IMG/VR virus record: IMGVR_UViG_3300038962_000175
Location: 1-61,479 of that record
DNA length: 61,479 nucleotides
Source: a virus
Lineage: Duplodnaviria; Caudoviricetes
Direction: 5' to 3' (one strand)
Both the position numbers and the translations under genes were made by a program. Within the stretch, counting starts at the first letter, position 1. The number at the start of each line of letters is the position of its first letter. The notes beneath the pieces are model-generated. The model was not told where the DNA came from, searched no databases, and worked only from the letters and a program-made list of their open reading frames with translations. Positions 1-30,804 of the stretch are shown in pieces.

Positions 1-585
1 AGTGCCAGCACCCCCAATCATAGGCTGGGCTTTCTCCTTTGTGTACCCAAGATGAGGATGGTCTATCTCCAGACGGTTATCTACGATGTCATATCCCACC
101 TCACCCCGGCTATCCCAAGACTTCTCCCTAAGCTCTTTTCCTAGAGACTGTGTGCCCGGCACTGCCATGAAGGGGCCGTCGTCAACTGTTACGTCCGTTA
201 GATATAGAAAAAACTTGAATGTATGATATCTATCAAAATGAAGAAACCCGTTCCTAGCCAGCCCCTTATCGTTTCTAAACTCGTGTGTTACGAATGTGGT
301 GTGACATCTAAACCCTCCTCCGAGGTATCCTTGACACACCTCTCGCATCCAGTCGGATTTGAAAAAATTATATAGATGTGTGTCTTGTGGCATCCTATTT
401 AGAGGGCCAATATTTCTAGCACGACCGAATTCATAGGAAGAATCTTCGTCGGAAAGCATGCCGACACACTCTCGTTTTATTAGAGAAACATCTGATAGGT
501 AGTTTTCTATCTTGACTACGCCAGATGTTTTTATTTTTTCAACTATGTCTGATATTGGGTCGTCTTTAGACGCAAGGATATCCAT
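1..585 (-). CDS. PhyH-family 2OG-Fe(II) dioxygenase (runs off left edge; absent from ORF track)
   Basis: Manual translation from ATG at 585 (AGGTG RBS): MDILASKDD...GVVKIENYL...GFLHFDRYHTFKFFLYLTDVTVDDGPFMAVPGTQ...GGAGT. HxD motif plus YLTD..GP..vPGT, typical of PhyH. Confidence 0.8.
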   Translation of the reverse strand, partial: MDILASKDDPISDIVEKIKTSGVVKIENYLSDVSLIKRECVGMLSDEDSSYEFGRARNIGPLNRMPQDTHLYNFFKSDWMREVCQGYLGGGFRCHTTFVTHEFRNDKGLARNGFLHFDRYHTFKFFLYLTDVTVDDGPFMAVPGTQSLGKELREKSWDSRGEVGYDIVDNRLEIDHPHLGYTKEKAQPMIGGAGT

Positions 586-3517: not shown

Positions 3518-4246
3518 TTAATCCCTAAAAATATAGCCGTCTGGATGGCAGGAAAATAAGAGTTTGTTTCTGATTTCTTCGTCTACGTGGAAATCAGCGT
3601 TTTCTTTTAGGAACTTTTTTAGCGCGGTTCTTGGGTTATTCCCCGGTCCCCACTCTCTCTTTCGGTGGGTCTGTTGCGGTAGATCCTCAACGATAGTGTC
3701 AGCGCATATAATATAGCATCCCTCACCAACAAGATCCTTATAGGCATCTAGTTCTTGTAGGACATGTTCTTCCGTATGATAGGAATCAAGTATAAGTAGG
3801 CATCTGTCTGAATAATTTACGGCCTCGTGAACGTCTTTAATTATAGATTCTTCTGTAGAGGGGCCTCTTATCAGGTGTATGTCAGACATTGTAGGCTTGT
3901 TAGATAATCTCTCGACCAAGTCGTCCGGTATATAGATATCAACCCCCACCACCTTACTTCCGCCTAGCATTCCTAACAGAGCAGAATAAAATAATGTGGC
4001 CCCACCCCAAGCCACCCCAATCTCAATAATATGGTCTGGTCTGGTTTTGAATACGATTTCTTGGATAGCGAACATGTCTTGAGGAAGCTGTAAAACAGGC
4101 TCCCCAAACCAATTAGTTTGATGAATCCAATGATTTTTATCTGCCTCAGTCAAAACGCTTAGAGCATCTTTCTGTAATTTCTTGTTTGCAAAAAGAGCTT
4201 CAGCCTTCTCTAGACGGAGTTCTTCAAATTCTTTTCTTGTCAGCAT
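3518..4246 (-). CDS. CmcI/cephalosporin hydroxylase-family SAM-dependent O-methyltransferase
   Basis: WFGEPVLQLPQDMFAIQE, PDHIIEIGVAWGG, ILDSYHTEEHVLQEL, WGPGNNP. Confidence 0.88.
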   Translation of the reverse strand: MLTRKEFEELRLEKAEALFANKKLQKDALSVLTEADKNHWIHQTNWFGEPVLQLPQDMFAIQEIVFKTRPDHIIEIGVAWGGATLFYSALLGMLGGSKVVGVDIYIPDDLVERLSNKPTMSDIHLIRGPSTEESIIKDVHEAVNYSDRCLLILDSYHTEEHVLQELDAYKDLVGEGCYIICADTIVEDLPQQTHRKREWGPGNNPRTALKKFLKENADFHVDEEIRNKLLFSCHPDGYIFRD

Positions 4247-4922
4247 TTGTCTCTTTCAAAATAATCTGGGCCGTCTTTAGGTCGATCCGATTGTCTATGT
4301 CTATTGATCTCTCTCTTGGCATGAAATACCCCTTCACCCTCCCCTTGTAAAAGTTCCTATTCTCAGTAAACGCGCCAGACCAAGATCCGTATATAGCCCC
4401 ATTCGGTCTATAGACAATTGGGTGATCTTGTGATCTGTGATTATTGTTTTGCCAAGGGTTGGAGTCATGCCAGTCAAAAATTATGTCTTCTCCGTCTTTC
4501 GTTAGACCTAGTGTTGGAGGAAACTCATAGTCAGTTATGCTAATTACGCTGTCAACATCTCCTGTCAGTAATTTTTGGGCATTGATAACATCTTTTTCCA
4601 TTCTAAGAGGGCATGTCGGAAGACATAACCAAACTTGGTCCACGTTACGCATTGTGTCATGGTAGTAATTAACGGTGTCTATTACTTTAGAAGTATTACT
4701 AGCAAGCTCTTCCGGTCTAGGTGAAGTTTCAACATTGACATATCTTTCAGAAACCATGCCAAGCATCACGTCGCAGTCGGATGTGAAAATTATTTGGTCA
4801 AATAGTCCGTCAATTATATCTAGGGTGTGGAATATTAGAGGTTTGTTATCCAGTAAGGATACGTTTTTATTGGGGAACCTAGTGGACCCTCCTCTTGCTG
4901 GAACTATACAGGTTCTATTCAT
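4224..4922 (-). CDS. CMP-ulosonate synthetase (NeuA-type acylneuraminate cytidylyltransferase family)
   Basis: IVPARGGSTRFPNKN, PTCPLR, RSQD, PNGAIY, SIDID. Confidence 0.9.
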   Translation of the reverse strand: MNRTCIVPARGGSTRFPNKNVSLLDNKPLIFHTLDIIDGLFDQIIFTSDCDVMLGMVSERYVNVETSPRPEELASNTSKVIDTVNYYHDTMRNVDQVWLCLPTCPLRMEKDVINAQKLLTGDVDSVISITDYEFPPTLGLTKDGEDIIFDWHDSNPWQNNNHRSQDHPIVYRPNGAIYGSWSGAFTENRNFYKGRVKGYFMPRERSIDIDNRIDLKTAQIILKETNADKKRI

Positions 4923-4933
4923 GGGTATTATCC

Positions 4934-5140
4934 CTAGCCTTTTTTTGCATGAATTATTTCCCAGTAAATCTTCTTAACTTTATCGCTGCCAGCTTCTACA
5001 AAAATAAATGGAATAAATGCGTGAACAAAACAAAGCACGCCTCCTAAGATCATATTTAACGACAGCCAAGTCGCTCTTTTAAAGTGAGATAAATACGATA
5101 TGTTATTTTTTTTAAGATGACTTAAGTCTACATATTTCAT
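4934..5140 (-). CDS. Small membrane protein (DUF6356-like)
   Basis: HL..nniSYlsHf..A..ls......lc.vHAfiPfiF pattern; one hydrophobic segment. Confidence 0.6.
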   Translation of the reverse strand: MKYVDLSHLKKNNISYLSHFKRATWLSLNMILGGVLCFVHAFIPFIFVEAGSDKVKKIYWEIIHAKKG

Positions 5141-5915
5141 TTTTCGCCCCTATCGACTCAGATTTTTCTATAAGATCTTGTAATCCGTTAAGCATTATTT
5201 GACAGTCTCCATCGGAGGCAGATTCTTTTGGTCTGGGGTGTGTCTCGGCAAAAACTCCGTCGTAGTTGAATATAGAAGCAGAAAGAAGGTATCTTTCGGC
5301 CAATTTTCTATCACCCTGAGTTCCGTATATCTTCCTGCTTCGCTGCGTCGAATGAGTACAGTCTAATATTACTCGGTCATAATGTTCTTTTAGCTCGTCC
5401 ACTATGGTGAGATCGACTATCAATTTATCATAACCAAACGACGAGCCTCTCTCGCAGATCCAAGCCTCCGTAGAAGGCGAGATGTCCTTTATTTTGTCAA
5501 CCGACTCGACAACATTATTTGGGCCAAGCCACTGTCCCTTCTTCACATTAACGATTTCAAAATTCTTGGCGCACTCTTTAATCAGATCTGTTTGTCTACA
5601 AAGAAACGCCGGTATTTGAATTGCGTCAATGTAGGGGGCGAGTTTTTCTACCTGCCAAGTTTCATGAACGTCGGTTGTTAGCTTTATGTTGGGGAATGAG
5701 GTTTTAATTTCCTCAAATATCTTCAACGATTCCTCTAGCCCAACCCCCCTATCTCCATAAAGAGACGTTCTGTTTGCTTTATCGAATGAGCCTTTATAAA
5801 ACCAATACCTATCTCCCATAAATTTATTAAGGTTCTCGGCCACCTCAAAGTAAAGATCTCTGCTATCAATGGCGCACGGACCTAGAATCCACACAGGCTT
5901 CATAGTCTTCCTCAT
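5112..5915 (-). CDS. kdsA: KDO-8-phosphate synthase (metal-dependent type)
   Basis: GPC, SFDKANRTS, TDVHE, QIPAFLCRQTDL, NVKKGQ, CERGSSFGY, DCTHS, ETHP..SDG. Confidence 0.93.
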   Translation of the reverse strand: MRKTMKPVWILGPCAIDSRDLYFEVAENLNKFMGDRYWFYKGSFDKANRTSLYGDRGVGLEESLKIFEEIKTSFPNIKLTTDVHETWQVEKLAPYIDAIQIPAFLCRQTDLIKECAKNFEIVNVKKGQWLGPNNVVESVDKIKDISPSTEAWICERGSSFGYDKLIVDLTIVDELKEHYDRVILDCTHSTQRSRKIYGTQGDRKLAERYLLSASIFNYDGVFAETHPRPKESASDGDCQIMLNGLQDLIEKSESIGAKNEICRLKSS

Positions 5916-6877
5916 ATTGAGTAGTTAAAATTTTTCTCTTTGAAAGATGCTAGCCTATTCTCTATGATCCTAAGCGTGTTAAAAATAGCATCACTTTCTT
6001 CCGAGGTTATGTCTGGGAATGGCGCTCTGTTGTAAAAGCAACAAATGTCTTTTTGATTTAACGCCTGTCTCATTGATTTATGCCATCCGATTTCCATAAA
6101 CGTATCGAATAATGGATTTTCAAAATGCTCTATTATGAAATGCTCCATTGTGTGCTCTAAGTTTACAGATCTGTTGAAATAATCTATTTCTATTTCAGGA
6201 AAAATGCTACCCACTCCAGACAGGAATGTTTGAACCCCTGTTGGTTTGAGTAGATTAAATCTTCTCATACTACCGCCAGCAACTATTACTGCAAAATCAT
6301 CCTTGTCTATATCTTTACAGACATTATAGGCAATATTAAAAGAAGAACCTTCCTCCTTCATTCCAAATATATTGGGATGGATCGCCACCTTATTTATGAG
6401 ACTGGAGGTAAAGTCGTACAAACCACCATTCCCACGGCGCATAAATCTTCCGTGAAAAAGTACGGGGAAATTGCTTTTGTCGGCTATGAAATGGAAATAA
6501 TTTATTATTGAAGAATCGTCATAATATCTTTCTGGGTAGACACCCATAAGATAAGTTTTTCCGTCATCCTCTATATTTTCATTCAGCCAATCTATTTCTT
6601 TCGCTAGTCTGGTGTTTGGAAACTCTGGAAGACCTAGTATCTTCACTCCAGAAAAAGCAGCAGAGCTAATCTCATTAAGCCTTCTTATCTCATATTCATC
6701 CAATAAATTGTACTGAGAGGTTCCCGCAGTTGTTACTATGGTATTAGCACCACCAGTTTCCAAGAAGTTTATGTAGTCCGTTGTTGAGCCTATGTCTAGC
6801 TCGCCAGTGTCTTTATATGAAGGGGGTATAGGAAAAACTGGACCATTGGTTATATCTTTTATCTTGGAGTTTATCAT
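5912..6877 (-). CDS. DapA/NanA-family class I aldolase (divergent)
   Basis: GELD, AGTSQY (cf. GTTGE), HPNIFGMKEE carrying the Schiff-base Lys. Confidence 0.75.
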   Translation of the reverse strand: MINSKIKDITNGPVFPIPPSYKDTGELDIGSTTDYINFLETGGANTIVTTAGTSQYNLLDEYEIRRLNEISSAAFSGVKILGLPEFPNTRLAKEIDWLNENIEDDGKTYLMGVYPERYYDDSSIINYFHFIADKSNFPVLFHGRFMRRGNGGLYDFTSSLINKVAIHPNIFGMKEEGSSFNIAYNVCKDIDKDDFAVIVAGGSMRRFNLLKPTGVQTFLSGVGSIFPEIEIDYFNRSVNLEHTMEHFIIEHFENPLFDTFMEIGWHKSMRQALNQKDICCFYNRAPFPDITSEESDAIFNTLRIIENRLASFKEKNFNYSI

Positions 6878-7281
6878 TATTTATTCTCTGTATCCCAGCA
6901 TTCGTTAAAGTCTCCAACCGACGCTCTGTGTTCGTCTTCTGGATTGTATTTCTCAGAAAGGTAATAAAGCATAATTGATCCGGGTTCTAAAGCTTTATAT
7001 CCATGGTATATTCCCGGCGGTATGTGAAGCAGTTTTGGAACTTTGTCAGAAAGATACTCAAATCTTACGTCATGTTTTTTCCCAGCTTCTTTCCCATTTG
7101 GCTCTGCTAGTCCAACCTTGAATGATCCTTTAACACAGAACCAAAAGTCGGATTGTATTTCATGTTTGTGCCAAGCAACAACATGGCTTGTAGAGTTTAC
7201 ATGTGAGATATTGATCTGACCGTCCAAGTGTGGAAAAACATCAATTATTCTTTGTGCCCTATCATCTTCGTGAAATTTCAC
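6877..7281 (-). CDS. RmlC-like cupin, NDP-sugar epimerase/isomerase
   Basis: AWHKHEIQSD, LHIPPGIYHGYKAL, YNPEDE. Confidence 0.8.
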   Translation of the reverse strand: MKFHEDDRAQRIIDVFPHLDGQINISHVNSTSHVVAWHKHEIQSDFWFCVKGSFKVGLAEPNGKEAGKKHDVRFEYLSDKVPKLLHIPPGIYHGYKALEPGSIMLYYLSEKYNPEDEHRASVGDFNECWDTENK

Positions 7282-8390
7282 AACCGTCTCCCTAAGAGCT
7301 TCTTGATCCCATCACAGATAAATTTCATATCTTTCTGTTTCAAATTTGCCGATCCGGGCAGATTGATTCCTCTACTGGATATATCATACGCTATTTCATT
7401 TGTACTACCTATAGTATTATAGGCCGGAAGTGACGATAGAGGGTAGAAAAAAGGTCTTGAAGGCACTCCTAATTTTTCAAGACCAGACATGGCCCGTTCT
7501 TTTGTGATTCCATGAGACTTTCCAAAAACCAAACCCGTTATCCAAGCGGAGTTGTAAACGTCTGAAGACTCTTGGTTGAATTCAAGATCTTCTATATTTG
7601 ACAGTTCGTTCTTGTAAAAATGCAACTGTTCTCTTTTCTTGTCAACAAGCTCATCTAGTCTCTGAAACTGTGCATACCCAAGAGCAGCCTGAAGATTAAA
7701 CGGCATGTACTTATAGGTAACCTCATCATTGTAATACATTTTATCTTTGGATCTTCCATGATCTCTGAGAAACATACACCTTTCGTATATGTCGTCATCA
7801 TCCAATAGCAGCATGCCCCCTTCACCAGTGGTCATTGTCTTGGTTCTGTGAAAACTAAAGACTGAACCAACACCAAAGCTGCCAGACCTCCTGTCTTGGT
7901 ACTTTGATCCGAGGGACTCCGCAGCATCCTCTATAAGGAAAATACCCTTCTCTAGGCAGATCTTCTCTAGGAGATCCATCCTAGCCATATTTCCAAAAAG
8001 ATTGACTACGATGATCGCCTTGGTTCTATCTGTTATTTTTTCAATAACACTATCTGGGGATAAACACCAGTTGTCTGGTTCTATATCACAAAAAACAGTC
8101 TTCGCTCTTAAGTATGTTATTCCTGCCGCGCTCGCTATCCATGTGCATTCTGGAACTATGACCTCATCATCATCACCCACCCCCAACGCTGTTAGTAAAA
8201 GATGAATAGATGTCGTGCAGTTGGGGGTCATTATTCCATATTTTCTTCCGTGATATTCAGCAAATTCTTTTTGTAACTGTTCGCAGTAGTAGTACTTATC
8301 TGGCCCATACCATCCGTTAGATACAGCATCAAGAACTGTGTCTATTTCGTGCTGTGTAATCCAAGGACCAGCCATTTCTATATCGTTCAT
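7278..8390 (-). CDS. DegT/DnrJ/StrS PLP-dependent sugar aminotransferase (perosamine synthase-like)
   Basis: IEDAAESLG, FSFHRTKTMTTGEGGM, GINLP. Confidence 0.93.
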   Translation of the reverse strand: MNDIEMAGPWITQHEIDTVLDAVSNGWYGPDKYYYCEQLQKEFAEYHGRKYGIMTPNCTTSIHLLLTALGVGDDDEVIVPECTWIASAAGITYLRAKTVFCDIEPDNWCLSPDSVIEKITDRTKAIIVVNLFGNMARMDLLEKICLEKGIFLIEDAAESLGSKYQDRRSGSFGVGSVFSFHRTKTMTTGEGGMLLLDDDDIYERCMFLRDHGRSKDKMYYNDEVTYKYMPFNLQAALGYAQFQRLDELVDKKREQLHFYKNELSNIEDLEFNQESSDVYNSAWITGLVFGKSHGITKERAMSGLEKLGVPSRPFFYPLSSLPAYNTIGSTNEIAYDISSRGINLPGSANLKQKDMKFICDGIKKLLGRRL

Positions 8391-9028
8391 TTTCTATTCA
8401 TTATTTTGGAAGGAACGCCAACTACAATCACATTAGGGGGGACATCTTCGACAACCAAGGCTCCAGCACCCACGATAGAATTTTCTCCTATCTGTAATCC
8501 GGGCAGAACAGTTGCCCCAGCACCAATCCAAGCACCATCATCAATGATAACGTTTCCACATAGGGTGGCGCCGGGGGATATCTCAACACCATTCCCCAGA
8601 ACGCACTCGTGATCTACGCTAGCATTAGTATTAACAATACATTGTATACCAAGCACTGCCTCTTCAAGCACTATTGCCCCCGCAGATATTTGACACCCGT
8701 TTCCAATGACTGCGCTATTAGATATAAATGCCGTTTTATGTACAACGTCAACAGGCGCCAACCCATCGATGGCCAATCTATTAGCAATCCGTACTCTAGC
8801 TAATCCATTCGGGTTGCCAATTGCAACACAAAATTTTAGGTCTTTTTTGTCTACTTGTGAAATCCATGAATCATAATCATTGCCAAAATATAGAGGTATA
8901 TCGTTAAATGGAGAGGTTAACCCCTCGGTATCATCAAATATGGCCAAGACCTCTAGACCATGGTTTTCTATAATTGGCCTGACTATTTTTGCCTGACCAG
9001 TCCCCCCCCAAATAATACAACCGCTCAT
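8387..9028 (-). CDS. NeuD/PglD-family sugar acetyltransferase (hexapeptide repeat)
   Basis: AIGNP..R, VNTNASVDHEC, VVGVP. Confidence 0.92.
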   Translation of the reverse strand: MSGCIIWGGTGQAKIVRPIIENHGLEVLAIFDDTEGLTSPFNDIPLYFGNDYDSWISQVDKKDLKFCVAIGNPNGLARVRIANRLAIDGLAPVDVVHKTAFISNSAVIGNGCQISAGAIVLEEAVLGIQCIVNTNASVDHECVLGNGVEISPGATLCGNVIIDDGAWIGAGATVLPGLQIGENSIVGAGALVVEDVPPNVIVVGVPSKIMNRK

Positions 9029-9939
9029 ATAATATTCCTAAATAAATCAAGCGTGTCCCCAATCCCCTCTTCTATACAGTCTCTTGGGATAAATCCGGTT
9101 TGTTTTATTTTTTCATCACTGACTTTATACGTATGTTGATTTAACATCGGACAGTCTACCATTTCTTTTGTGGTATGAATGTTGTCCTCTATAATATCGA
9201 TTATGGTTCTGGTTTTGATGTTGTCAGTTATAAGATTGTATACTTGGTTCCAACACTCTTCTTTTTTTATGAGATGGTTGATTGCAGAAAAACAGTCTTC
9301 CAGACCAAGGTATGGTCTATGTTTGTCGTAATTTTCTTTCCAAACGGTCAAAGGCTTTCCGGTAACTGCTTGATAGCAAAATTTATTTACGGCAGTATGG
9401 AATCGCATACCGGGACTTTTTCCAAATATAGTTCCTAGCCTAAGAGTGAGATAGTTCGTATCGCATCCTTCGCCCAGCGAGGAAGACACGACATCTTCTA
9501 TCGTAATTTTTGATTCGGCGTAGGGGCTTTGTGGGTTGATATAAGAACTATTATCTTCACAAACTTTATCGGTAGAGATTCCGTAAACACTGGTAGAGGA
9601 TGGGAAGATGAACAATTTAACCTTAGATGTTCTGCACTTGTCAATAAATTTAGTTGTGTAATCTATATTTACTAGCTCAACCTCTTTAGTATTAGTAAAG
9701 CTCTTGGATGCGTTCGTTATCGCCGCCAGATGGAGAACGATATCTATGCCTTCAAGATCAAAGGAGTCAATGTCTTTAATATTCTTTTCTCTAAAATCTA
9801 TCTTCCTGTTAAGGCTAAACAACGAACACCATCTTGAAGAAGATAAGTCGTCTATTACTCTTAAATTATCTTCTTTGGGGATTCTATTAAGGAAATAAGA
9901 TCCTATATGTCCCAGACCTCCTGTTATTAGAAAATTCAT
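9025..9939 (-). CDS. NAD-dependent epimerase/dehydratase (extended SDR)
   Basis: ITGGLGHIGS, HLAA, SSTSVYG, YAESK. Confidence 0.92.
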   Translation of the reverse strand: MNFLITGGLGHIGSYFLNRIPKEDNLRVIDDLSSSRWCSLFSLNRKIDFREKNIKDIDSFDLEGIDIVLHLAAITNASKSFTNTKEVELVNIDYTTKFIDKCRTSKVKLFIFPSSTSVYGISTDKVCEDNSSYINPQSPYAESKITIEDVVSSSLGEGCDTNYLTLRLGTIFGKSPGMRFHTAVNKFCYQAVTGKPLTVWKENYDKHRPYLGLEDCFSAINHLIKKEECWNQVYNLITDNIKTRTIIDIIEDNIHTTKEMVDCPMLNQHTYKVSDEKIKQTGFIPRDCIEEGIGDTLDLFRNII

Positions 9940-11114
9940 ATGAGAGACACTCTCGGAACGTGTGATATAAACTTACCGCCACGCTTTAGGAAGTTGAACT
10001 CTTTCTGCTTTATCTCGTCTAGATAATTCCAAGCACCCAAGAATGCGTAATCTACAGAGAGATTGAACCCTTCTTGCGGAGAGACAACAGGAATATGCAT
10101 TCCCGGCGACAACTTTCCTTGCTTGGAAAGTGTTGTGTCTGTTATATAGTCTATTATATCTGGACCTATGCCGCAATAATTAAATATTGATGTGGACTTA
10201 GAGGTAGCTCCATAACCAACTATCTTATTCTTACCCCTTTTTAACCTAGACAATAGATCTAGCAGATCTTTCTTTGATTTTTCGACACGCTCTGAGAACT
10301 CATAGTAGGTTGTTATACTATCTATCCCAGCATCAAATTCATCGGATATTATTTTATGAACCATGATGTTGTTATATTTTGGAGACTGTAGCTTCTGTGC
10401 AAATATACGATTTGATCCACCATGCACCTTTGTTTTTTCTACGTGAAATATTTCCAAGCCAGATCTCTCTAAGATGTTGTCTAGCGCAGTAACTGAAAAT
10501 ATGTGTGCATGCTCATCGTAAATTTGGTCGTATGAATTTCTCTCCAGCATCTCAAGCACGGAAGGGTCTTCGAAGATAAACACCCCGTCTTTATGGAGAA
10601 TATTTTCAACCGCTTTGAATGCTTCTTCTATATCAGGTATGTGACACATACAGTTTGCAGAATAGACAACTTTTACTTCACCTTCGACCTCTTTTATTAT
10701 GCGGGAAAGTTCCATATCCCAAAAGTCGTCGTAAGTAGTGTAGCCGAGTTCTCTTGTTATTTTTGCAAAGTTTCCACAAGGCTCAACCGAGAAGGCTTTC
10801 TTGGGATCGAAGTGCTGTAGAAAAACTCCGTCATTGCTGCCGATCTCCAGAATTCGTTCCCTAGGGAAATACAGATCTATTAGGCCAGCAACCTTAGAAA
10901 AATGATTCTTCATTGTTTGAGAACCGGAAGAATGATACGTATAAGTATCATTGAACATTAAGGGAGGATCTACAAAGTCCATATGGGAGACAAGCTTTGT
11001 CTCTGGATCAAAGCCCACCTCTAAATCGTAAAGAAATTCATTTTCACACTCCGTTGGTGTTAGAAATGCATTAGCTATTGGCTGTTTTCCAAGATCCAGA
11101 AATTTGGTTTTCAT
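9936..11114 (-). CDS. NDP-sugar C3-methyltransferase (TcaB9/NovU/EryBIII family)
   Basis: LDLGKQP, LEIGSNDG, NCMCHI, IYDEH, VHGGS, GYGATSK, PGMHIP, AWNY. Confidence 0.9.
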   Translation of the reverse strand: MKTKFLDLGKQPIANAFLTPTECENEFLYDLEVGFDPETKLVSHMDFVDPPLMFNDTYTYHSSGSQTMKNHFSKVAGLIDLYFPRERILEIGSNDGVFLQHFDPKKAFSVEPCGNFAKITRELGYTTYDDFWDMELSRIIKEVEGEVKVVYSANCMCHIPDIEEAFKAVENILHKDGVFIFEDPSVLEMLERNSYDQIYDEHAHIFSVTALDNILERSGLEIFHVEKTKVHGGSNRIFAQKLQSPKYNNIMVHKIISDEFDAGIDSITTYYEFSERVEKSKKDLLDLLSRLKRGKNKIVGYGATSKSTSIFNYCGIGPDIIDYITDTTLSKQGKLSPGMHIPVVSPQEGFNLSVDYAFLGAWNYLDEIKQKEFNFLKRGGKFISHVPRVSLI

Positions 11115-11776
11115 CTGTGAATAATAACCTTTTTGTTAGATTCCATCTCTCTTAGCATTTCTCTCTCTACGGAATACCTATGGCATGGACCGGCCTTGAC
11201 CTTATCCTTCTCCCAATAATGAGTGGCGTTTTCTGGAGGCTCATCCACGCCGAACCCAAAGAGATGGGGGGTTATGTCGCTTTCTATGCACATCCAGACA
11301 AAAGCTATTCCTATACTGGGGATGAAGTCGTTTCTTAGGGGATTGCTTCCAGTCCAGCTTTCCTTAGCATATCTCATTTGATGAACCACATCATTGAATG
11401 GAACAGTATACGCGGTTGAAGTTTCATCTATATGCATTCGAGCCTGTTCAATCGTTATATTAGAAGGATGAGGGCCAATTCTAACAATCTTAGAGTCTTT
11501 TTGATTCTTAATAAAATTAGTTGGCTGTCCTTCTGTAGCCCACCCCGTGTGAGGAATATTTGCAAACACATGGTTGTTGGCTATTCTCACGGTAGTCTTT
11601 GCACCAACATGTTCTTCAAACCCCTCTGTTGGCGCCCTGTTGAACCTAACCACATCATCAAACTCATCTATTTCTCTTCCACTTTTATTATCCAGTAGGT
11701 TCACGCTTGAAGCGACAATGCAGATGTTGTCGTCTATCTCAAGGGCTGGATCAGTGTAAACGATCTCTTTTTTCAT
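11111..11776 (-). CDS. GT29 sialyltransferase-like glycosyltransferase
   Basis: Sialylmotif L (CIVASS..L....GREIDEFDDVVRFNRAPTEGFEEHVGAKTT), S-like (PSIG...HLFGFG), motif III (HYWE), VS (HRYSVE). Confidence 0.88.
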   Translation of the reverse strand: MKKEIVYTDPALEIDDNICIVASSVNLLDNKSGREIDEFDDVVRFNRAPTEGFEEHVGAKTTVRIANNHVFANIPHTGWATEGQPTNFIKNQKDSKIVRIGPHPSNITIEQARMHIDETSTAYTVPFNDVVHQMRYAKESWTGSNPLRNDFIPSIGIAFVWMCIESDITPHLFGFGVDEPPENATHYWEKDKVKAGPCHRYSVEREMLREMESNKKVIIHR

Positions 11777-12384
11777 GACATTCTTTTCAGTAGGAAATTA
11801 AAGTTTAGCTCGTCCATTTTTGACACTTTGTACTCATAGCCATGCTTTTGTATAGAATCAATAACATCCTGTTCTTTATGATAAAAAGAGTATGTTGTTA
11901 TATTATATGCGTCAAGTGTTTTGTAGAAGCTTGGCCATCCAGTTATTTTCATCCTTTGGATTATCAGATTGTCGGCTTTTAATGACAATAGGTGATCAAA
12001 GCACTCCTGTCCGTTCGGAAGAACATCACACAGAGCGTTTGCCACGACAACATCACCTGTCTTGATGTCATTTTTTGACAAATCCTCATAGCCTCTAGGC
12101 TCAAAATTTCCATCCCAAGCATCTCTTGCGATAGAAACTGCGTTTTCAGAATAATCATATCCAACATAATCCTTGTCGGGAAAATGTCTTTGGGATAATC
12201 CATAATACGCCCCAGCCCCACATCCCACATCCACTATTCTGGTTACATTTTGTAGATCATTAATACAATCAATAAAATGATGCCAATGAGAGGGATATTT
12301 TTCTCCTGAAGATAGTTGTCTTTTATTTAGCGCCAGTTGATACTTAAAGACTTTCGAATTCTTCCAAGAATCTATATATTTCAT
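11773..12384 (-). CDS. Class I SAM-dependent methyltransferase
   Basis: VDVGCGAG, GYDYS. Confidence 0.85.
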   Translation of the reverse strand: MKYIDSWKNSKVFKYQLALNKRQLSSGEKYPSHWHHFIDCINDLQNVTRIVDVGCGAGAYYGLSQRHFPDKDYVGYDYSENAVSIARDAWDGNFEPRGYEDLSKNDIKTGDVVVANALCDVLPNGQECFDHLLSLKADNLIIQRMKITGWPSFYKTLDAYNITTYSFYHKEQDVIDSIQKHGYEYKVSKMDELNFNFLLKRMS

Positions 12385-13265
12385 TTGTGAACAAACTCCG
12401 ATAGCTGTTCCACAAATCTATTTTTGAGCTTCGGCATGTTCTCTTTTATTATTTTCGGGTGCTCGCCGTCAAAATCCTTTGTTCTGCACTCGCCGCGAGA
12501 TCTAGGCTTGAACTCATGAACACCTTCGTATTTATGTTCAACCAGAGACTTTTGAACCTCATCCCCCATAACCCAAGGAAGATAAACATCCTCGAAATAG
12601 TTATCGATGCAGTTGTCTTTACTCACAGCCGCTTTGTAATAGGCAACCTTTTGAGCAACTTGATATGGGAACACATAGGAGTAGTGGTACATTCTCACCC
12701 CGTGTTCTTTGTGTAGTTTGTTAAAATCAAGATGCTTCTCAGGCAGCCCCTCTGTCTCATGCTTCATTCTGGGCGGTCTGTGAGAGGCCCAAGTAGAGCC
12801 GGGGTAGACCTTGCACACCCTATTGAATTCTGCGTTCTCCTCAAATCCACCCAGAATTTTATCAAAACCTCCATAGAAGGAACAACTCTTAAACCCCACG
12901 GTTGTATATTGTTCTTCCTCTAGGAGGGAAATTACCTTCTCTATATCTTCGGGCTTGAAAACTTCGTCAGAATCTAGGTTCCATACATAGTCGGTGTCTG
13001 GAGAAAGGTTCTTTATGTATGCGTTACATTGTTCTTCTTTTTCAGAGTATAGCCCGTGGGTAATGGAGATCTTATTATCGGGATCGGGAAAGCTGTCGAT
13101 GATTTGATTGGTTCCATCGGAAGACGTTAAAAGTCCTGTCGATTGCCAAAACTGCACCGGACCTTCTGCAATTAAAATCTGGTGTGCGTAGGGATAGACA
13201 GAAGCTAGAACCTCCTCTAGGACGTAGTTTCCGTTAAACACTATCATACCAAAGGTTATCTTCAT
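12381..13265 (-). CDS. GT2-like glycosyltransferase
   Basis: GMIVFNG, SSDGT, NLDSDE, HYSY. Confidence 0.75.
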   Translation of the reverse strand: MKITFGMIVFNGNYVLEEVLASVYPYAHQILIAEGPVQFWQSTGLLTSSDGTNQIIDSFPDPDNKISITHGLYSEKEEQCNAYIKNLSPDTDYVWNLDSDEVFKPEDIEKVISLLEEEQYTTVGFKSCSFYGGFDKILGGFEENAEFNRVCKVYPGSTWASHRPPRMKHETEGLPEKHLDFNKLHKEHGVRMYHYSYVFPYQVAQKVAYYKAAVSKDNCIDNYFEDVYLPWVMGDEVQKSLVEHKYEGVHEFKPRSRGECRTKDFDGEHPKIIKENMPKLKNRFVEQLSEFVHK

Positions 13266-17285: not shown

Positions 17286-18342
17286 TGGCCTGTATGCTGT
17301 TGGTAAGTTTTTCTAGCGCTAATAGGCAATTATCACGATGTTTTTCCATCTCCAAAAGATCAAATATCTTTGCGCACCTGTTAAAGTACGTATGATTTTT
17401 CATCACGTTTTTGTGCCCCTTTTCGATGTAGGGCTGTCTCTCGTCTGGATGTTCTATAAAATGGTCTAACGTATCTTTAAATTCTAACGGGGATGTAAAT
17501 ACCACCTCATCATCTGTAAATATTTTTCGCATTGCTTCGACATTGTCGGATATGCAAAAAGATTTGTTGGAAAGAATTTTGAATGTTCTCTCGTTAACAT
17601 CTATACCAAAGTCTTGTGCATGTGGTTCGCTTATGTTGGGGCATACTGTAGCAGATTTTAGAACATCTTTTACCATTTGATCAGAAATAAACCCCATGTA
17701 TTGAATACCAGATATTATATTCCAAGGTTGATTTCCGAAAATCTTTACGTTGTATTTTCCGGGCGGGTAAAATAGCTGGCTAATATACTTATTAAAACTT
17801 ACAGCCTTATATGGCCAGCAGCCGCCAACAAACGAAACATCGCTTCTTAAATAGTCAACCTCTTTTCCGTTAACATACTCAAAAATATCTGCGGCATTCA
17901 GAAGTCCGGTCGCTTTAACTCCTATGCTTTGCCATCCGTTATGGGTTCTTTCAACATCTTCATCTAGATAGTGAACGTATACAAAATCCGGCTTCCCTGT
18001 CATTTTTTTAAGAAGCTCTATATTTCTTTTTTCTTCGTCTGTTACAAAGAGTACATTATATTTATTTGGGTCTATTTCTTTCTGTATATCACCCCAATCT
18101 GGGGCTTTCATTATCACTTTTAGATTCGGTCTTTCGGCTATGCATTTAAAAACTGATTTAGTTAGATTGTAAGTTTGACCGATAAATATATCAGGTTCAA
18201 ATTCATCAAAAATATCAAACGCTGTTTGGCTTTTGATGTCCCACAGTATCACCTCATGACCAGAGTAGCTTAAGGCTTTAGCCAGCCCTGTTCTGACGTA
18301 AAAGTGGGCATGCATGCCATCACTAGATATCATTATCTTCAT
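17278..18342 (-). CDS. GT-B glycosyltransferase (CgeB/Glyco_trans_1_2-like)
   Basis: DVSFVG, NERTFKI, HTYFNR. Confidence 0.78.
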   Translation of the reverse strand: MKIMISSDGMHAHFYVRTGLAKALSYSGHEVILWDIKSQTAFDIFDEFEPDIFIGQTYNLTKSVFKCIAERPNLKVIMKAPDWGDIQKEIDPNKYNVLFVTDEEKRNIELLKKMTGKPDFVYVHYLDEDVERTHNGWQSIGVKATGLLNAADIFEYVNGKEVDYLRSDVSFVGGCWPYKAVSFNKYISQLFYPPGKYNVKIFGNQPWNIISGIQYMGFISDQMVKDVLKSATVCPNISEPHAQDFGIDVNERTFKILSNKSFCISDNVEAMRKIFTDDEVVFTSPLEFKDTLDHFIEHPDERQPYIEKGHKNVMKNHTYFNRCAKIFDLLEMEKHRDNCLLALEKLTNSIQANE

Positions 18343-19033
18343 ACAGATCCTTCGCTGTCTCTATTTTTTTTATCGAATGTTTTGCTTTTGGTTTGTGCTG
18401 TTTAATTATTCCGCCGTTGTTGATGACATAGTTGAGAATTTCAAACAGTAGGAGTTTATTTTTGTCTCTATTTCTACAAATTTTTTCTGCGAGACGAAGT
18501 TCAAAATCTCTTAAGAAGAATATATTATATGTCTTGGTTTTCAGTCCGAAAGATAGTTGGTTTACACAGCCATTACTGATTGTGACCCCTATATCTTGTT
18601 GGTTGCATTCTTCCTCTACACAGACAAGAAATGAACTTGCAAAGTCAAAATCAAGAAGTACGTCTTCTGGGAACATAAGGTTCCCGTCAATAAATAAAAT
18701 TCCAGATTCAGAAGAATTATTTATAAGTAGCCTCAAGTATTCAGCAGGGCCAGAAGTTTGGAAATTTTGATTCTCTACTATCCTCATGCATTTTGGAAGC
18801 AATCCCACAACTTTATCACACCCATATCCAGCAACGACATATATACAATTATTTGAGTATACTTTTTTTATGATACTAGATTGGTGCTCTATTAAACTTT
18901 GTCCATCAATAGTGCTCAATAAGTATTTTGGAACATAAGATTTCGACTTCTGGGAATTTTCGCAGGCTAATATGGCTACTCCCAAGTCGTCGGTCTTTGA
19001 CCTTTTTATTTCAGATACGTGTCTACGACTCAT
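18323..19033 (-). CDS. Degenerate sugar/choline-phosphate nucleotidyltransferase-fold protein
   Basis: VAILA...PKYLL, VVAGY, VENQNF; the canonical GxGxR motif is absent. Confidence 0.6.
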   Translation of the reverse strand: MSRRHVSEIKRSKTDDLGVAILACENSQKSKSYVPKYLLSTIDGQSLIEHQSSIIKKVYSNNCIYVVAGYGCDKVVGLLPKCMRIVENQNFQTSGPAEYLRLLINNSSESGILFIDGNLMFPEDVLLDFDFASSFLVCVEEECNQQDIGVTISNGCVNQLSFGLKTKTYNIFFLRDFELRLAEKICRNRDKNKLLLFEILNYVINNGGIIKQHKPKAKHSIKKIETAKDLYEDNDI

Positions 19034-26351: not shown

Positions 26352-28007
26352 TTAAATTTGTAAAACTTTTTCTACAACCAGTCCATCCCTCCCTTTTGAA
26401 GTTTCGCCACACAGTAAAACTGTATTGCCTTCTGTTAACAAGCTTTTGTATTTTTCCCAACCCTCTGGAAAAATAACGACGGAATCTGCCTCGGAGCTTC
26501 CGTCCTCCACGCTAAGAAAGGCCATTTTTTTACCTTTCATCTTACCCTTTGCTATCACCCACTCGCGACAAGACTTAACCTCAACGCCAAGGGTTAGTTT
26601 TCCCTTCTTGCCATCTACAAGTTCTTTGCAGGTCGTATTAACAGAAGTCGTGTCACAGGAATCTACCTTACAATAAGAGAGCGGCACTCCAAGGAGTCGC
26701 TCCTCTTCCATAACGATCTCGTTTGGATAGTCCTCTAGGGAGTAGGGGGGAGAGTCTAGTTGAAGAATCAGGTCTTCTACAATAGCTTTTCTATTCTTAT
26801 TGGAAGTCCCTCCCCCCTCCTTCTTTGTTGGAGATAGGATCCTCATCGCTGAAACGAGACGTTCTTCATCCTGACAGTTCAAAGATATCCACTCCTTCTC
26901 TTTTTTTGTAAGGACGCTCCATGTTTCGAACTCATAAACACATTCTTTCCTGCTGATTTTACTGTTAGTAAATTCGGAAAGAGCGCCCACATGTATAAGC
27001 GACTCCATAACTTTAGAGCTAATTTTGTCAGAGATATTTATAAGAAACTTATACCAAGTCATCTCGCCAGCAAAAAGGTTTTGGTTCTTATATTCTTTCA
27101 TAACCTTTATAAGCTTGTCTACGTGGTTCTTGCCTATGTATTTTATATCCCCTATACCAAAGCTGACAGATTCGTCATGTATCTTAAATGATTTATTCAA
27201 GTTACCTATGCTTGGAGACTGTACGGTCACACCACTAGACCGAGCGTCAGACACTAGATCTCTTATCTCTTGCTGCGGGTCTGGCTTACCACCCGAGTAA
27301 TACAGATAGCTACAGTAGAAATCCAAAGGGAAATGTGATTTGCAATAAGCAGACCAATAGCCACAAATAGCATAAGAAACAGCATGGGACTTATTAAAAG
27401 CGTAACGATTAGATTTTTCAATCCACCCGAATATCTCCTCCGCTGTTTCTCTAGACACAACACCTTTGTCATCCGCTCCTGTTAGGAAGGAATCTTTTAC
27501 CTCAGACATAAGGTCGGCCTTTTTCTTGCCGATTGCCTTTCTTAGATTGTCTGCTTCCCGAAGACTGAATCCTGCAATGACCTGAGCAATTTTCATAGAC
27601 TGCTCTTGGTACACAAGAACGCCCTGAGTGGATTTAAGTATAGGTTCCAGAGAATCATGAAGGTATGACACCTCCTCTTTTTTATGTTTACGATCTACAT
27701 AGTGTTGGGTCATTGACTTTCCATCTACTATAGCCTTAAGACATCCGGGTCTTAGAAGAGCAGACAGGGCAGCTAAGTCCTCAATGCTTCGAGGTTTTAA
27801 TCTCTTAGCCCAAGATCTTCCAAGCTGGCTTTCTAGCTGAAAAACCCCTTTAGTTTTTCCCTCACATATTAAATCCCAAGTTCTTTCACAATCGTAATTC
27901 ACATTCAGCATGTTTAAGTCAATGATGGGTAGACCGTCCTCTTTTTTCTGGGACGGGTCTCCATCTATGTCAAACTCACATCCACACTCAAACGTATAAA
28001 TTGCCAT
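26352..28007 (-). CDS. dnaE: DNA polymerase III alpha, C-terminal part (fingers, HhH, OB)
   Basis: GVFQLES, LRPG, VYQEQ, ADNLRKAIGKKK, YAFNKSHA, KMAF..ED OB fold. Start 28007 or 28025. Confidence 0.93.
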   Translation of the reverse strand: MAIYTFECGCEFDIDGDPSQKKEDGLPIIDLNMLNVNYDCERTWDLICEGKTKGVFQLESQLGRSWAKRLKPRSIEDLAALSALLRPGCLKAIVDGKSMTQHYVDRKHKKEEVSYLHDSLEPILKSTQGVLVYQEQSMKIAQVIAGFSLREADNLRKAIGKKKADLMSEVKDSFLTGADDKGVVSRETAEEIFGWIEKSNRYAFNKSHAVSYAICGYWSAYCKSHFPLDFYCSYLYYSGGKPDPQQEIRDLVSDARSSGVTVQSPSIGNLNKSFKIHDESVSFGIGDIKYIGKNHVDKLIKVMKEYKNQNLFAGEMTWYKFLINISDKISSKVMESLIHVGALSEFTNSKISRKECVYEFETWSVLTKKEKEWISLNCQDEERLVSAMRILSPTKKEGGGTSNKNRKAIVEDLILQLDSPPYSLEDYPNEIVMEEERLLGVPLSYCKVDSCDTTSVNTTCKELVDGKKGKLTLGVEVKSCREWVIAKGKMKGKKMAFLSVEDGSSEADSVVIFPEGWEKYKSLLTEGNTVLLCGETSKGRDGLVVEKVLQI

Positions 28008-28671
28008 CGGCAAAAGCCTTTTCAAATTTAGTTCTTGATGCCAGACTTCTCTGGAACTTCATAAACCTTATCATTATGTTTGCGGTATCTTTAACATCCT
28101 GAAGTGCATCGTGAGCATTTTCATCCGACAAACCCATGTAATCCCGCATATTATCCATACTAATAGATTTTATGTCGGGATTGTTTTCCGTCCATAGAAA
28201 CATCATGTCCATAACATCAATTTTGTTTACCTTACTAAACAATTTTTGATGTCCGGTCTTTTCGTTTAGAGGCCCATATTCTCTGCACAATCTATCAACA
28301 ATTATCATGTCAAAACCATTGATATTGTATCCAGCAGGTATCGGAGCATACCACTGGGTCTTTTTAAAATTATATTTGTCAACAAACTTTGTAAATTTTT
28401 TCCACACCTGTTTTGGATGAGGAGCTTTTGCTAGACCTTCTCTTGTCTTCTTTGTTAACTCTAAAGCTTCATCCTCTAGAGGGTCTAGTCCTTGTTTGAT
28501 AGCCTCTTCGTCATCTAATATAGGACGAATCTCGCTATTGAAAAACCCTCCGGGTTGAACTGTTAGCTTTCTTCCATGTATTGCAACTGCTGCTATTTGT
28601 GTGGGTTGTGTCTTTTCTGGGTTGACAGAACCGGTTTCAAAATCAAATACAATTATATCTCTATAGTTCAT
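27988..28671 (-). CDS. DEDDh 3'-5' exonuclease (DnaQ/epsilon-like)
   Basis: FDFETG (Exo I), GYNINGFD (Exo II), HDALQD (Exo III). Confidence 0.92.
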   Translation of the reverse strand: MNYRDIIVFDFETGSVNPEKTQPTQIAAVAIHGRKLTVQPGGFFNSEIRPILDDEEAIKQGLDPLEDEALELTKKTREGLAKAPHPKQVWKKFTKFVDKYNFKKTQWYAPIPAGYNINGFDMIIVDRLCREYGPLNEKTGHQKLFSKVNKIDVMDMMFLWTENNPDIKSISMDNMRDYMGLSDENAHDALQDVKDTANIMIRFMKFQRSLASRTKFEKAFADGNLYV

Positions 28672-28883
28672 GAAATCTTGCCTTTTATCTCCAAAAATTT
28701 GTCTATGGCATCAAAAGGACTCTTGTACATCATGCTAAATTTGGCTTTTCTATTATCAGAATGAACCTGATACAAATCAGTCTTGACAGTTCTTGTGTAA
28801 TGATTGTTTATCCTGCAAAGAGATAAATCGTTACACTCTATAGAACAGCCATCTAAAAGCACTTCACTGTAATGTTTCTTCAT
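28668..28883 (-). CDS. Hypothetical protein
   Basis: 71-aa ORF overlapping both neighbours. Confidence 0.6.
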   Translation of the reverse strand: MKKHYSEVLLDGCSIECNDLSLCRINNHYTRTVKTDLYQVHSDNRKAKFSMMYKSPFDAIDKFLEIKGKIS

Positions 28884-30804
28884 CTATAACTCCAGTTAAA
28901 AGTTGATCCCTTACTCCCATAATTTTATCCAATAGATTGATACCAAGAACATCAAATTTTACATGACCCATAGCCTCAAGATCTACCATTTCCAATCCGG
29001 CGATTTTATCGGTGCCGTTGGTTTCTTTGACCATTGGACACGACTTGTTTAAGTTTTTGGAAGATATAACAACCCCGGCGGCGTGCTTACCTTGAGACTT
29101 GTATGTCCCCTCTAACCTCATTGCTTGCTCGAACAACTTTGCGTAATCACCAGTCAGAATACCGTCATCTTTTAATTCGCAATAATCACTAAGAGCCTCT
29201 GGCTGGTAGGTCAAAGTCCATAATATCGACGATGAATTTGATATGGATTCTAGCTGGTCTGAAATTTTATCTTCTTGCGGTAGAGACTTTGTTATCCTGT
29301 TCATCTCATCAAATGAACATGCGTCATGAACTCTCAGCACTTCCTTTAAAGCACTTCTTCCTTGCAGTCTACCGAATGTTACCATTTGACAGACCCTGTC
29401 ATCGCCATACTTAGATCTTATATACTGTATAACCGAATCTCTTTTTGTTGCCGGGACATCTATATCAATATCGGGTAGGGAGATATGATCTTCCGTGTTC
29501 CTACCCATATTATAAAATCTCTCAAAGAGCAAGTCATATTCTATTGGATCGACTTCGGTTATACCAATCAGATATGAGATTAGACAACCTGCGGCAGAAC
29601 CTCTTCCGGGGCCAGCCAACCAATTCTGATTCTTAACATAATCTACAATGTCTCTAACTATCAAAAAATAACCGGACAGATTTGCCCGGCTGATGACATC
29701 AAGCTCTTCTTTTATTCTATCAACGTACTGTTTAGTTTTTTCTTCGGTGTTTACTTTCCCCTCTCTTTTTAACCTATTACGCCAACCGTCTCTACAGAGA
29801 TCCCTGAGATACTCTTCTTCTGTCATATCTTTAGGGCAAGAAAACTTAGGAAGCATGGGGTGGCCTAATATATCGTAATCCTCACAGCCGTCTGATATGA
29901 GCTTGGAGTTATAAAGCTCCTCTTCCGAATGAAGAGACTCCATTTCTTCTAGCGAAGGTATGTGGTAGTTGTTTGATTTAAAAAAAGAAGAGAGAACAAT
30001 ATTTTCGTTATTTTTCAGCCTATCATTAACCTTTTTTAAAGTAGTTTTCATCGCAGAGCATAGTATTATCCTTTGATCTGCGGCGTCTTCTTTTGTTGGA
30101 TAGTGTGAGTCGGCTGTTGCCACTGGGGGAATGTTTGTTTCCCTGCTAACCTCTCTAAGGCATTCTGCTATGAGTTCTGCTGCGGGAAAATTATCCTTGT
30201 CTATAAGTTGTATCTCTACGAAAAAATTTCCAGCACCAAAAATTTTGAGATATCGTGAGGCCATCACGATTGCATCTTCTTTCCAGTTTCTCTTCAAATG
30301 CTTTGCTGATTCTTCATAGGTTTTAGCAGAGTAACCAGCTTTCACATCTTTAAATAGCACATTTGCTAGGTCGCTGCCCGGATGACCACTAAAGGCTACT
30401 AGACTTCCCTTAGTGTCTCCAACTATCTCATCCAGCAAGTTAAGGTCTAGTCTTGGTTTAAAATAAAACACATCCTCTTCATTACTTCTAGATGTAGCTT
30501 CAATTAATTTGTTCCAACCTTCAGTGTTCTTAGCTAATACTACCAGATGAGATAGTGAACGATTCTGTTTATCTTTTAGTTTAGCATCATTTGATATATA
30601 AAATTCACAACCTAGTATTGGTTTGATATTTTTTTCTCTCATCGCCCTCACGAACGAAACGGCTCCAGAGATTGTACCGTGATCAGTTATTGCACATGAG
30701 GTATATCCAAGTTCAGAGCATCTGTCGGCAACTTGAGACGGCTTTGAGAGGCCGTCTAGGAGGCTGTAGTGTGTGTGTAAATGCAAAGGTGTCCAAACTG
30801 ACAT
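28864..30804 (-). CDS. dnaE: DNA polymerase III alpha, N-terminal part (PHP, palm, thumb)
   Basis: HLHTHYSLLDG, TDHG, GPGRGSAAG, LLFERF, PDIDID, HAAGVVI, KFDVLG. Confidence 0.95.
   Translation of the reverse strand: MSVWTPLHLHTHYSLLDGLSKPSQVADRCSELGYTSCAITDHGTISGAVSFVRAMREKNIKPILGCEFYISNDAKLKDKQNRSLSHLVVLAKNTEGWNKLIEATSRSNEEDVFYFKPRLDLNLLDEIVGDTKGSLVAFSGHPGSDLANVLFKDVKAGYSAKTYEESAKHLKRNWKEDAIVMASRYLKIFGAGNFFVEIQLIDKDNFPAAELIAECLREVSRETNIPPVATADSHYPTKEDAADQRIILCSAMKTTLKKVNDRLKNNENIVLSSFFKSNNYHIPSLEEMESLHSEEELYNSKLISDGCEDYDILGHPMLPKFSCPKDMTEEEYLRDLCRDGWRNRLKREGKVNTEEKTKQYVDRIKEELDVISRANLSGYFLIVRDIVDYVKNQNWLAGPGRGSAAGCLISYLIGITEVDPIEYDLLFERFYNMGRNTEDHISLPDIDIDVPATKRDSVIQYIRSKYGDDRVCQMVTFGRLQGRSALKEVLRVHDACSFDEMNRITKSLPQEDKISDQLESISNSSSILWTLTYQPEALSDYCELKDDGILTGDYAKLFEQAMRLEGTYKSQGKHAAGVVISSKNLNKSCPMVKETNGTDKIAGLEMVDLEAMGHVKFDVLGINLLDKIMGVRDQLLTGVIDEETLQ

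Follow-up and report, generated by a model that had tools for sequence, protein, structure and literature searches.

The window analysed here is a 61,479-nt stretch of DNA (IMG/VR record IMGVR_UViG_3300038962_000175) from an uncultured phage (Caudoviricetes), and its subject is a run of sugar-biosynthetic genes at positions 3518-11776. The ten genes that a preliminary description had named in this region are all there, in one translationally coupled minus-strand run in which successive genes overlap by 1-4 nt from GT29 through KdsA (Table 1). Four of them make up the core on which this study centres: KdsA, a synthase of the 8-phosphate of Kdo (3-deoxy-D-manno-octulosonate); a DapA-like protein; a cytidine monophosphate (CMP) sugar synthetase of the NeuA/PseF type; and a glycosyltransferase of family GT29. 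KdsA, NeuA/PseF-type synthetase, DapA-like protein and GT29 recur in other phages as a conserved unit without NeuB, KdsB, KdsC or KdsD. The reported absence of the latter four enzymes from the window holds among the 76 open reading frames (ORFs) scanned with Pfam (30 + 46), SIS/KdsD and KdsC-type HAD domains included.

Conservation of the core

A sequence-pattern search for the DapA-like protein in IMG/VR and GTDB returned 34 viral loci and one locus in a metagenome-assembled genome (MAG). The pattern matches, together with locus L001 and the window and minus L045 (which lies on the same contig as L001), form a 36-locus set in which at most about 10 kb per side was covered and genes were counted by an iterative hidden Markov model (HMM) survey. 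Because the core genes recur together throughout the 36 loci found via the DapA-like protein, their clustering is not a matter of chance, and the neighbourhood search bears out the idea that they co-occur in related genomes (Table 1). The DapA-like gene serves as the module's signature. Some loci carry two to three copies of GT29.

Among 50,697 GenBank phage records, tblastn with KdsA matched 10 records, cyanophage S-SCSM2R among them, and GT29 matched a single uncultured huge phage; the DapA-like protein matched none, and megablast of the region found no match and no close GenBank phage, so that no phage isolate is available as a model. No PHROGs family was found for KdsA, the synthetase, GT29 or the DapA-like protein. 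A literature search, with most subscription journals outside its scope, found no published description of a phage module combining a DapA-like protein, KdsA, a PseF-type synthetase and GT29; two genome papers name phage KdsA with 'KdsB' or 'NeuA' without analysis (PMC12801897, PMC5332604).

Table 1. Genes in and around the run at 3518-11776, and loci of the 36-locus set in which each gene or a homologue was counted.
Gene product	Position	Strand	Features and profile match	Loci (of 36)
PhyH-family Fe(II)/2-oxoglutarate dioxygenase	1-585	-	PF05721, 23.9 bits; cut by window edge	27
CmcI/rhamnosyl-type O-methyltransferase (accessory tailoring)	3518-4246	-	PF04989, 221.8 bits	5 (CmcI-type)
CMP synthetase, NeuA/PseF type	4224-4922	-	PF02348, 42 bits	32
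DUF6356 protein	4934-5140	-	68 aa; PF19883, 62.8 bits; between KdsA and synthetase, not listed in the preliminary description	12
KdsA, metal-type Kdo-8-phosphate synthase	5112-5915	-	NF003543, 256.2 bits (cut-off 242)	36 (adjoins DapA-like gene in 34)
DapA-like protein, class I (Schiff-base) type	5912-6877	-	PF00701, 19 bits (cut-off 22.1)	36
Small cupin, RmlC/FdtA/WbuC-like (weak)	6877-7281	-	PF00908, 29 bits; PF05523, 26.5 bits	20 (identical set to C-methyltransferase)
DegT/LegC/PseC-like sugar aminotransferase	7278-8390	-	PF01041, 320 bits	12
NeuD/PglB/VioB-family N-acetyltransferase	8387-9028	-	TIGR03570, 192.5 bits (cut-off 160.8)	2
Extended SDR, epimerase/reductase type	9025-9939	-	PF01370, 104 bits	
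C-methyltransferase	9936-11114	-	PF08484, 157.9 bits, with PF08421 and PF13489; TylC3/NovU-like architecture	20
GT29	11111-11776	-	221 aa; PF00777, 89.3 bits (cut-off 23)	26 (GT29 or diverged GT29)
Class I methyltransferase	11773-12384	-	Pfam; coupled, upstream of GT29, past the right edge of 3518-11776	15
GT2	12381-13265	-	Pfam; coupled, upstream of GT29, past the right edge of 3518-11776	12
Mini-HAD				21

KdsA with and without the DapA-like protein

KdsA passes the NF003543 equivalog cut-off and scores 243 bits against TIGR01362, under its cut-off of 314. It aligns end to end with the KDO8P synthase of PDB entry 1fwn (188 bits), and the alignment keeps GPCAI, FDKANRTS, IPAFLCRQTD, THS, ETH and SD. 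The Cys/His/Glu/Asp metal ligands and the substrate segments KANR(T/S)S and FLCRQTD are retained, and the catalytic and substrate residues are invariant in 14 DapA-linked KdsA homologues; we take their roles to be those of metal ligands, arabinose-5-phosphate/phosphoenolpyruvate (PEP) loop and the Arg of FLCRQTD. Together, the equivalog score and the intact residues suggest that Kdo-8-phosphate is the likely product.

Phage KdsA also occurs by itself. A KdsA-seeded scan gave 39 loci, of which only L001 has a DapA-like protein, and none of 10 such lone-KdsA loci scanned with Pfam encodes one. In a KdsA tree, the 28 distinct sequences from DapA-linked loci split as one group from 24 lone KdsA (support 97/92). 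Lone-KdsA loci typically carry a full-length cytidylyltransferase and a small cupin, and L023 has a GT29 too. The small cupin is a Cupin_2 protein of 114-117 aa beside KdsA and a KdsB-type synthetase (L005:9059-9403, L012:7443-7796, L019:11417-11761, L024:9577-9930), with a mutual identity of 58-70%. Nothing in the window clearly corresponds to this cupin, which is a candidate for taking the place of the missing arabinose-5-phosphate isomerase.

The CMP synthetase

The synthetase is of the NeuA/PseF type and not of the KdsB type, as the preliminary description had held, and the hybrid motif ARGGSTRFPNKN that it had pointed out is present in the sequence. The PseF model TIGR03584 is matched over positions 2-220 of 222 (91.4 bits; cut-off of 205.7 not reached), whereas KdsB models reach only 20-28 bits and cover no more than the N-terminal 50-85 aa (cut-offs 155-255). 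Similarly, residues 5-223 align with the CMP-Neu5Ac synthetase of PDB entry 1eyr (E 1.1e-17), with PTxPLR, RPNGAIY and SIDID..DL aligned, whereas the top KdsB match in PDB has an E value of 0.012. The protein exceeds the equivalog cut-off of no substrate class, and it is the sole CTP_transf_3 protein among the scanned window ORFs, which hold no second cytidylyltransferase.

The same distinction runs through the related loci. PseF is the top-scoring model for eight of nine DapA-linked synthetases, the window's included (relatives 107-136 bits), the exception being an extra 175-aa copy beside NeuB in L073, while KdsB is the top-scoring model for all five synthetases examined beside lone KdsA. 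A DapA-like enzyme and a lone KdsA are accordingly accompanied by activating enzymes of different classes.

The DapA-like protein

The AlphaFold2 model of the DapA-like protein (pLDDT 93) has the fold of the dihydrodipicolinate synthase/N-acetylneuraminate lyase (DHDPS/NAL) superfamily, a (beta/alpha)8 barrel with a C-terminal helical domain. Structural matches reach Z 30.6-32.4 with a root-mean-square deviation of 2.1-2.5 over 284-298 residues, at an identity of 10-16% to solved superfamily members; DHDPS, sialic acid lyases and KdgD all tie as fold matches (Foldseek, VIA-align), and the top PDB profile matches, 3d0c and 3e96, are a weak guide to its reaction. Against PF00701, where the window protein falls below the cut-off, 10 of 11 scanned relatives score 24.6-45.5 bits, the short ORF of L040 has no match and the fusion protein P0149 scores 65.6.

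The active site combines familiar and divergent features. K174 aligns with the GxKE/D Schiff-base Lys on strand 6 and is invariant in 20 close and 24 diverse members, and R147 aligns with DHDPS R138. At the position of the catalytic Tyr (DHDPS Y133/NAL Y137), by contrast, stands H142, which every one of the 20 close members has and which is conserved to at least 90% across the 24 diverse ones. AGTSQ stands where the superfamily has GTTGE, and a GWH motif is conserved in the family, with H266 invariant in the 24 diverse members.

Among 1.84 billion proteins, those of the family fall into 146 representative clusters (E<=1e-30), and its homologues in the ESM Atlas are mostly viral. The single GTDB locus, in a Haliscomenobacter MAG, came from a pattern-dependent scan and is weak evidence of rarity in cells. 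A full HMM search revealed GT2::DapA-like fusions, P0149 (583 aa, in a cluster of two members from two sources) and P0235 (361 aa), in which the GT2 is of the same family as the window gene at 12381-13265; a search by word index found no long DapA-like fusions. A predicted complex of KdsA with the DapA-like protein scored 0.00, which weighs neither way.

GT29

The top PDB matches of GT29 are ST3Gal and ST6Gal, over the N-terminal motif-L region (E 1.6e-10). A 15-sequence phage alignment has R44/N46, G156, G174-F175, H186-Y187 and H199..E204 invariant, which we take to be sialylmotifs L, S, III and VS. At its N-terminus the sequence has neither a hydrophobic stretch nor a membrane segment. In L001-type loci, a family without a Pfam match occupies the GT29 slot and is a diverged GT29 (hhalign probability 98.4%, E 9e-15). 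To our knowledge, activity has been shown for no bacterial or phage GT29. The motif definitions agree with those of Petit et al. (2018; PMC5811610), where marine bacterial GT29 proteins are likewise described as having no transmembrane segment and no conserved Cys pair, both of which hold for the phage GT29 as well.

The idea that GT29 with Kdo is without precedent does not stand, since one study presents the Arabidopsis GT29 MGP2/RCKT1 as a putative CMP-Kdo transferase (PMC11288761). This plant enzyme, together with L023, where KdsA and a KdsB-type synthetase are paired with GT29, argues for GT29 as a Kdo-type transferase. In prasinophyte scales, a GT29 expansion is combined with Kdo, and GT29 has been proposed as the Kdo transferase (PMC13213038).

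Missing steps and the mini-HAD

Five related phage records (95, 60, 100, 41 and 100% complete) were searched for the enzymes that the window lacks. NeuB models matched none of the five, three of which are at least 95% complete, so the suspicion that a NeuB lies elsewhere finds no support in relatives; KpsF/KdsD and KdsC models likewise matched none. In the wider set, L073:12934-16148 holds NeuB, a second short cytidylyltransferase and three more GT29 genes beside the KdsA/DapA-like core, and two synthase types can thus coexist.

The absence of KdsC from the window stands, whereas the corresponding step does not appear to be missing, in that KdsC is probably replaced by a HAD phosphatase of about 100 aa found in 21 of the 36 loci. 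This mini-HAD has a DxDxT motif and weak matches to the capsule phosphatase TIGR01689 and to phrog_1238. In 10 loci it is the immediate upstream neighbour of the DapA-like gene, and it also occurs in fusions, HAD::DapA-like in L064 and methyltransferase::HAD in L068. In L001, L041 and L044 the HAD comes right after PhyH, which in this phage is truncated at the left edge of the window, and this phage's own mini-HAD probably lies just beyond that edge.

Proposed pathway

We hold, with fair though not strong confidence, that two sugar pathways stand side by side in the roughly 25-kb glycan island of this phage, one in which Kdo-8-phosphate is remodelled, activated as a CMP-sugar and passed to GT29, and one that is a nucleoside diphosphate (NDP) hexose branch. 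In the first, KdsA would condense PEP with host-derived arabinose-5-phosphate into Kdo-8-phosphate, as its intact catalytic and substrate residues suggest. The DapA-like enzyme would then form a Schiff base between Lys174 and the 2-keto-3-deoxy acid and remodel it, either by C4 epimerisation through retro-aldol cleavage and re-addition or by C4 dehydration in the manner of KdgD or L-2-keto-3-deoxyarabonate (L-KDA) dehydratase. AraD is a precedent for C4 epimerisation by retro-aldol cleavage and re-addition. The mini-HAD, seen in relatives, would strip the 8-phosphate, methyltransferases and the PhyH dioxygenase may decorate the sugar, the NeuA/PseF-type synthetase would make the CMP-sugar, and the soluble GT29 would transfer it to an acceptor. 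In the second branch, the cupin, DegT, NeuD, SDR and C-methyltransferase would tailor a separate NDP-4-keto-6-deoxyhexose.

More specifically, and only tentatively, we propose that the DapA-like protein founds a branch of the DHDPS/NAL superfamily with His in place of Tyr that converts Kdo-8-phosphate into a new eight-carbon ulosonic acid, the C4 epimer or a 4-deoxy-5-keto compound. The module would then be a third CMP-ulosonate route beside Kdo and the NeuB-type pathways, widespread in uncultured phages and with a soluble GT29 as its readout. The earlier proposal of a CMP-activated Kdo-like sugar made by a mixed route is thereby kept in its core; its single ten-gene route and its amino, acetyl and C-methyl decoration are not.

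Several points weigh against this interpretation. The functions given to the module proteins are predictions from sequence and modelled structure, and the role of the DapA-like protein is deduced solely from the chemistry of its family and from its gene neighbours. Its aldolase, synthase and dehydratase relatives are not told apart by searches with fold or profile, and its NCBIfam lean to KdgD amounts to only 30 bits. The host is assumed as the source of arabinose-5-phosphate, the core has no reductase of the kind that a dehydration product might need, and tblastn found no HAD in the window. Since the module is one clade, one event in an ancestor may account for the link between DapA-like protein and PseF-type synthetase, and near-duplicates and related phages make up many of the 36 loci, so that the synteny counts overstate independence.

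Alternative explanations

The module could instead make plain CMP-Kdo, with the DapA-like protein supplying or recycling substrate, for instance in the role of the missing KdsD or as a pyruvate/arabinose-5-phosphate aldolase, and with the NeuA-type synthetase activating Kdo. KdsA is fully canonical, KdsD is absent from all five relatives, and R147 occupies the place of the Arg by which DHDPS binds an anionic acceptor. Moreover, the small cupin of lone-KdsA phages could be an isomerase of their own, which would mean that phages may need their own substrate supply. However, among known DHDPS/NAL-family reactions only cleavage of Kdo-8-phosphate yields arabinose-5-phosphate, and the consistent switch from KdsB-type to PseF-type synthetases, our main reason for thinking that the sugar is not plain Kdo, is left unexplained. 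We regard this alternative as unlikely. Formation of arabinose-5-phosphate from ribulose-5-phosphate by the DapA-like protein via a Schiff base was considered separately and rejected, as no plausible chemistry for it was found.

The preliminary description read the ten genes as a single route to a CMP-activated Kdo-like sugar, possibly with amino, acetyl or methyl groups. In such a route, with a product that carries amino, acetyl and C-methyl groups, a DapA-like dehydratase would create the keto group for the tailoring enzymes. The single coupled run fits this reading, the Pfam scan of 76 window ORFs turned up no NDP-hexose 4,6-dehydratase and no clear nucleotidyltransferase, a 5-keto handle would result if Kdo were dehydrated in the manner of KdgD, and a NeuA-type synthetase with GT29 would suit a 5-acetamido acid. 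Conversely, the core occurs without the cupin and C-methyltransferase in 16 of the 36 loci, DegT and NeuD are scarcer still than these two (Table 1), and the 100%-complete relative G003 has the core with window-type cupin and C-methyltransferase absent from its locus. Modification of a Kdo-like sugar by the genes from cupin to C-methyltransferase, whether amino, acetyl or C-methyl, is unlikely, since the core occurs without them, and we consider the single route as a whole improbable. GMD is encoded elsewhere in four of the five relatives and G001, the closest of them, has an RmlA-like gene beside the island; a conventional NDP-hexose branch could be fed by either. The whole G003 record contains neither GMD nor an RmlA-type gene.

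The separability of the core from the cupin and C-methyltransferase, together with the GMD and RmlA-like genes of relatives, is one reason for assigning 6877-11114 (cupin, DegT, NeuD, SDR and C-methyltransferase), with moderate confidence, to an NDP-deoxyhexose branch of its own. A further reason is the likeness of the cupin, C-methyltransferase and SDR to what we take to be the NovW/NovU/NovS triad (epimerase, C-methyltransferase and reductase) of dTDP-noviose synthesis. The SDR falls far under the cut-off of every NCBIfam equivalog; it has GGLGHIG and YAESK and lacks the TDE dehydratase motif, motifs whose meaning we presume. DegT has its top NCBIfam match in the LegC family (257 bits, under the cut-off of 420). 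Elsewhere in the window, a 236-aa ORF of no clear family at 18323-19033 has a weak MobA-like match (PF12804, E 0.005) and is a possible sugar nucleotidyltransferase for an NDP-hexose branch.

The acid 3-deoxy-D-lyxo-heptulosaric acid (Dha) is present in plant rhamnogalacturonan II (RG-II) and prasinophyte scales. The DapA-like protein might be an independent synthase of the pyruvate aldolase type that makes a second acidic sugar beside Kdo (a Dha-like heptulosaric or a Kdn-like acid), one permissive synthetase and the GT29 enzymes serving both; this is improbable, because the DapA-like protein was never seen without KdsA (36/36 loci) and is translationally coupled to it, the catalytic Tyr that known aldolases need is His, and a source of the acceptor aldehyde is not encoded, even though NAL-family aldolases form 2-keto-3-deoxy acids reversibly, the R138-equivalent residue fits an acidic aldehyde acceptor, some loci have multiple GT29 copies, and RG-II and prasinophyte scales combine Kdo with GT29 expansion (PMC13213038).

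The phage and its glycan island

Every long ORF of the window lies on the minus strand. By Pfam, a glycan island occupies bases 1 to ~24,900 and encodes sugar-nucleotide enzymes alongside glycosyl-, methyl- and sulfotransferases. No transporter, flippase or polymerase family was matched among the 76 scanned ORFs, and the glycan target may therefore be a phage product or a host structure. Genes of the sulfotransferase family at 601-1575 and 56664-57323 suggest a sulfated glycan, and sulfotransferase-like genes also lie beside the core in L001, L049, L058, L064 and L071.

Replication and metabolism genes of the window include a split DNA polymerase III alpha, DnaB, primase, RecA, SSB, a sigma factor, class II ribonucleotide reductase, ThyX and PhoH. 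The polymerase occupies two ORFs, 28864-30804 (PHP and NTPase domains) and 26352-28025 (finger, HHH and OB), with an RNase T-like exonuclease gene between them (27988-28671). Amid the replication genes, 31310-32248 encodes a member of the ornithine cyclodeaminase/mu-crystallin family (PF02423, 233 bits; top NCBIfam match archaeal-type alanine dehydrogenase, 215 bits, under cut-off) and is a possible auxiliary metabolic gene. Outside the glycan island, between ThyX and a deoxynucleoside monophosphate kinase, 33858-34199 encodes a 113-aa cupin of the mannose-6-phosphate isomerase C-terminal type (PF01050, E 5e-22).

Relation to known systems and implications

The phage module shares with the canonical CMP-Kdo pathway (KdsD, KdsA, KdsC, KdsB and GT30 WaaA or KpsC/KpsS/GT99) a genuine KdsA, a HAD phosphatase (seen in relatives), a CTP_transf_3 protein for activation with CMP, and transfer from a CMP-sugar. 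It differs in having no KdsD, a HAD of about 100 aa for KdsC, a PseF/NeuA-type synthetase, GT29 and an extra, obligatory DapA-like protein. Other phages also place KdsA beside a CMP synthetase in glycan islands, among them L005, L010, L019, L023, L033 and cyanophage S-SCSM2R (PMC12801897); these lone-KdsA modules differ in their KdsB-type synthetases (5/5), in having no DapA-like protein in the 10 scanned, and in a KdsA that falls across the split in the tree. Bacterial nonulosonic acid pathways (NeuB/PseI/LegI with NeuA/PseF/LegF) resemble the module in synthetase type, DegT/NeuD-like neighbours and a sialyltransferase-like transferase, whereas they condense with NeuB and the phage module with KdsA (DAHP_synth_1), NeuB being an addition in L073 only.

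At the level of single proteins, the DapA-like protein shares with the DHDPS/NAL superfamily (DHDPS, N-acetylneuraminate lyase, 2-keto-3-deoxygluconate aldolase, KdgD and L-KDA dehydratases) the TIM barrel, the Schiff-base Lys and the Arg at the R138 position, and departs from it in Tyr to His, GTTGE to AGTSQ and the conserved GWH. Plant and green-algal GT29 proteins have the GT29 fold and sialylmotifs in common with the phage GT29 and, in the studies cited above, are used or proposed for CMP-Kdo. However, the plant enzymes sit in the Golgi membrane and receive their donor from a KdsB-type synthetase, whereas the phage GT29 is soluble and has a PseF/NeuA-type partner. The present analysis contributes the contrast between KdsB- and PseF-type synthetases, the single clade of DapA-linked KdsA, the fusions with HAD and GT2, the His-for-Tyr signature across the wider family and the setting apart of the NDP-hexose branch.

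The module is relevant to what large phages glycosylate. If the DapA-like step does alter the sugar, this would mean an acidic sugar in phages that has so far gone undescribed, a reaction type new to a well-studied superfamily, and the first tractable soluble GT29 enzymes with a donor set by a defined operon. Such a result would bear on what is transferred by bacterial and plant GT29 enzymes, as well as on the biosynthesis of Kdo-type sugars other than Kdo.

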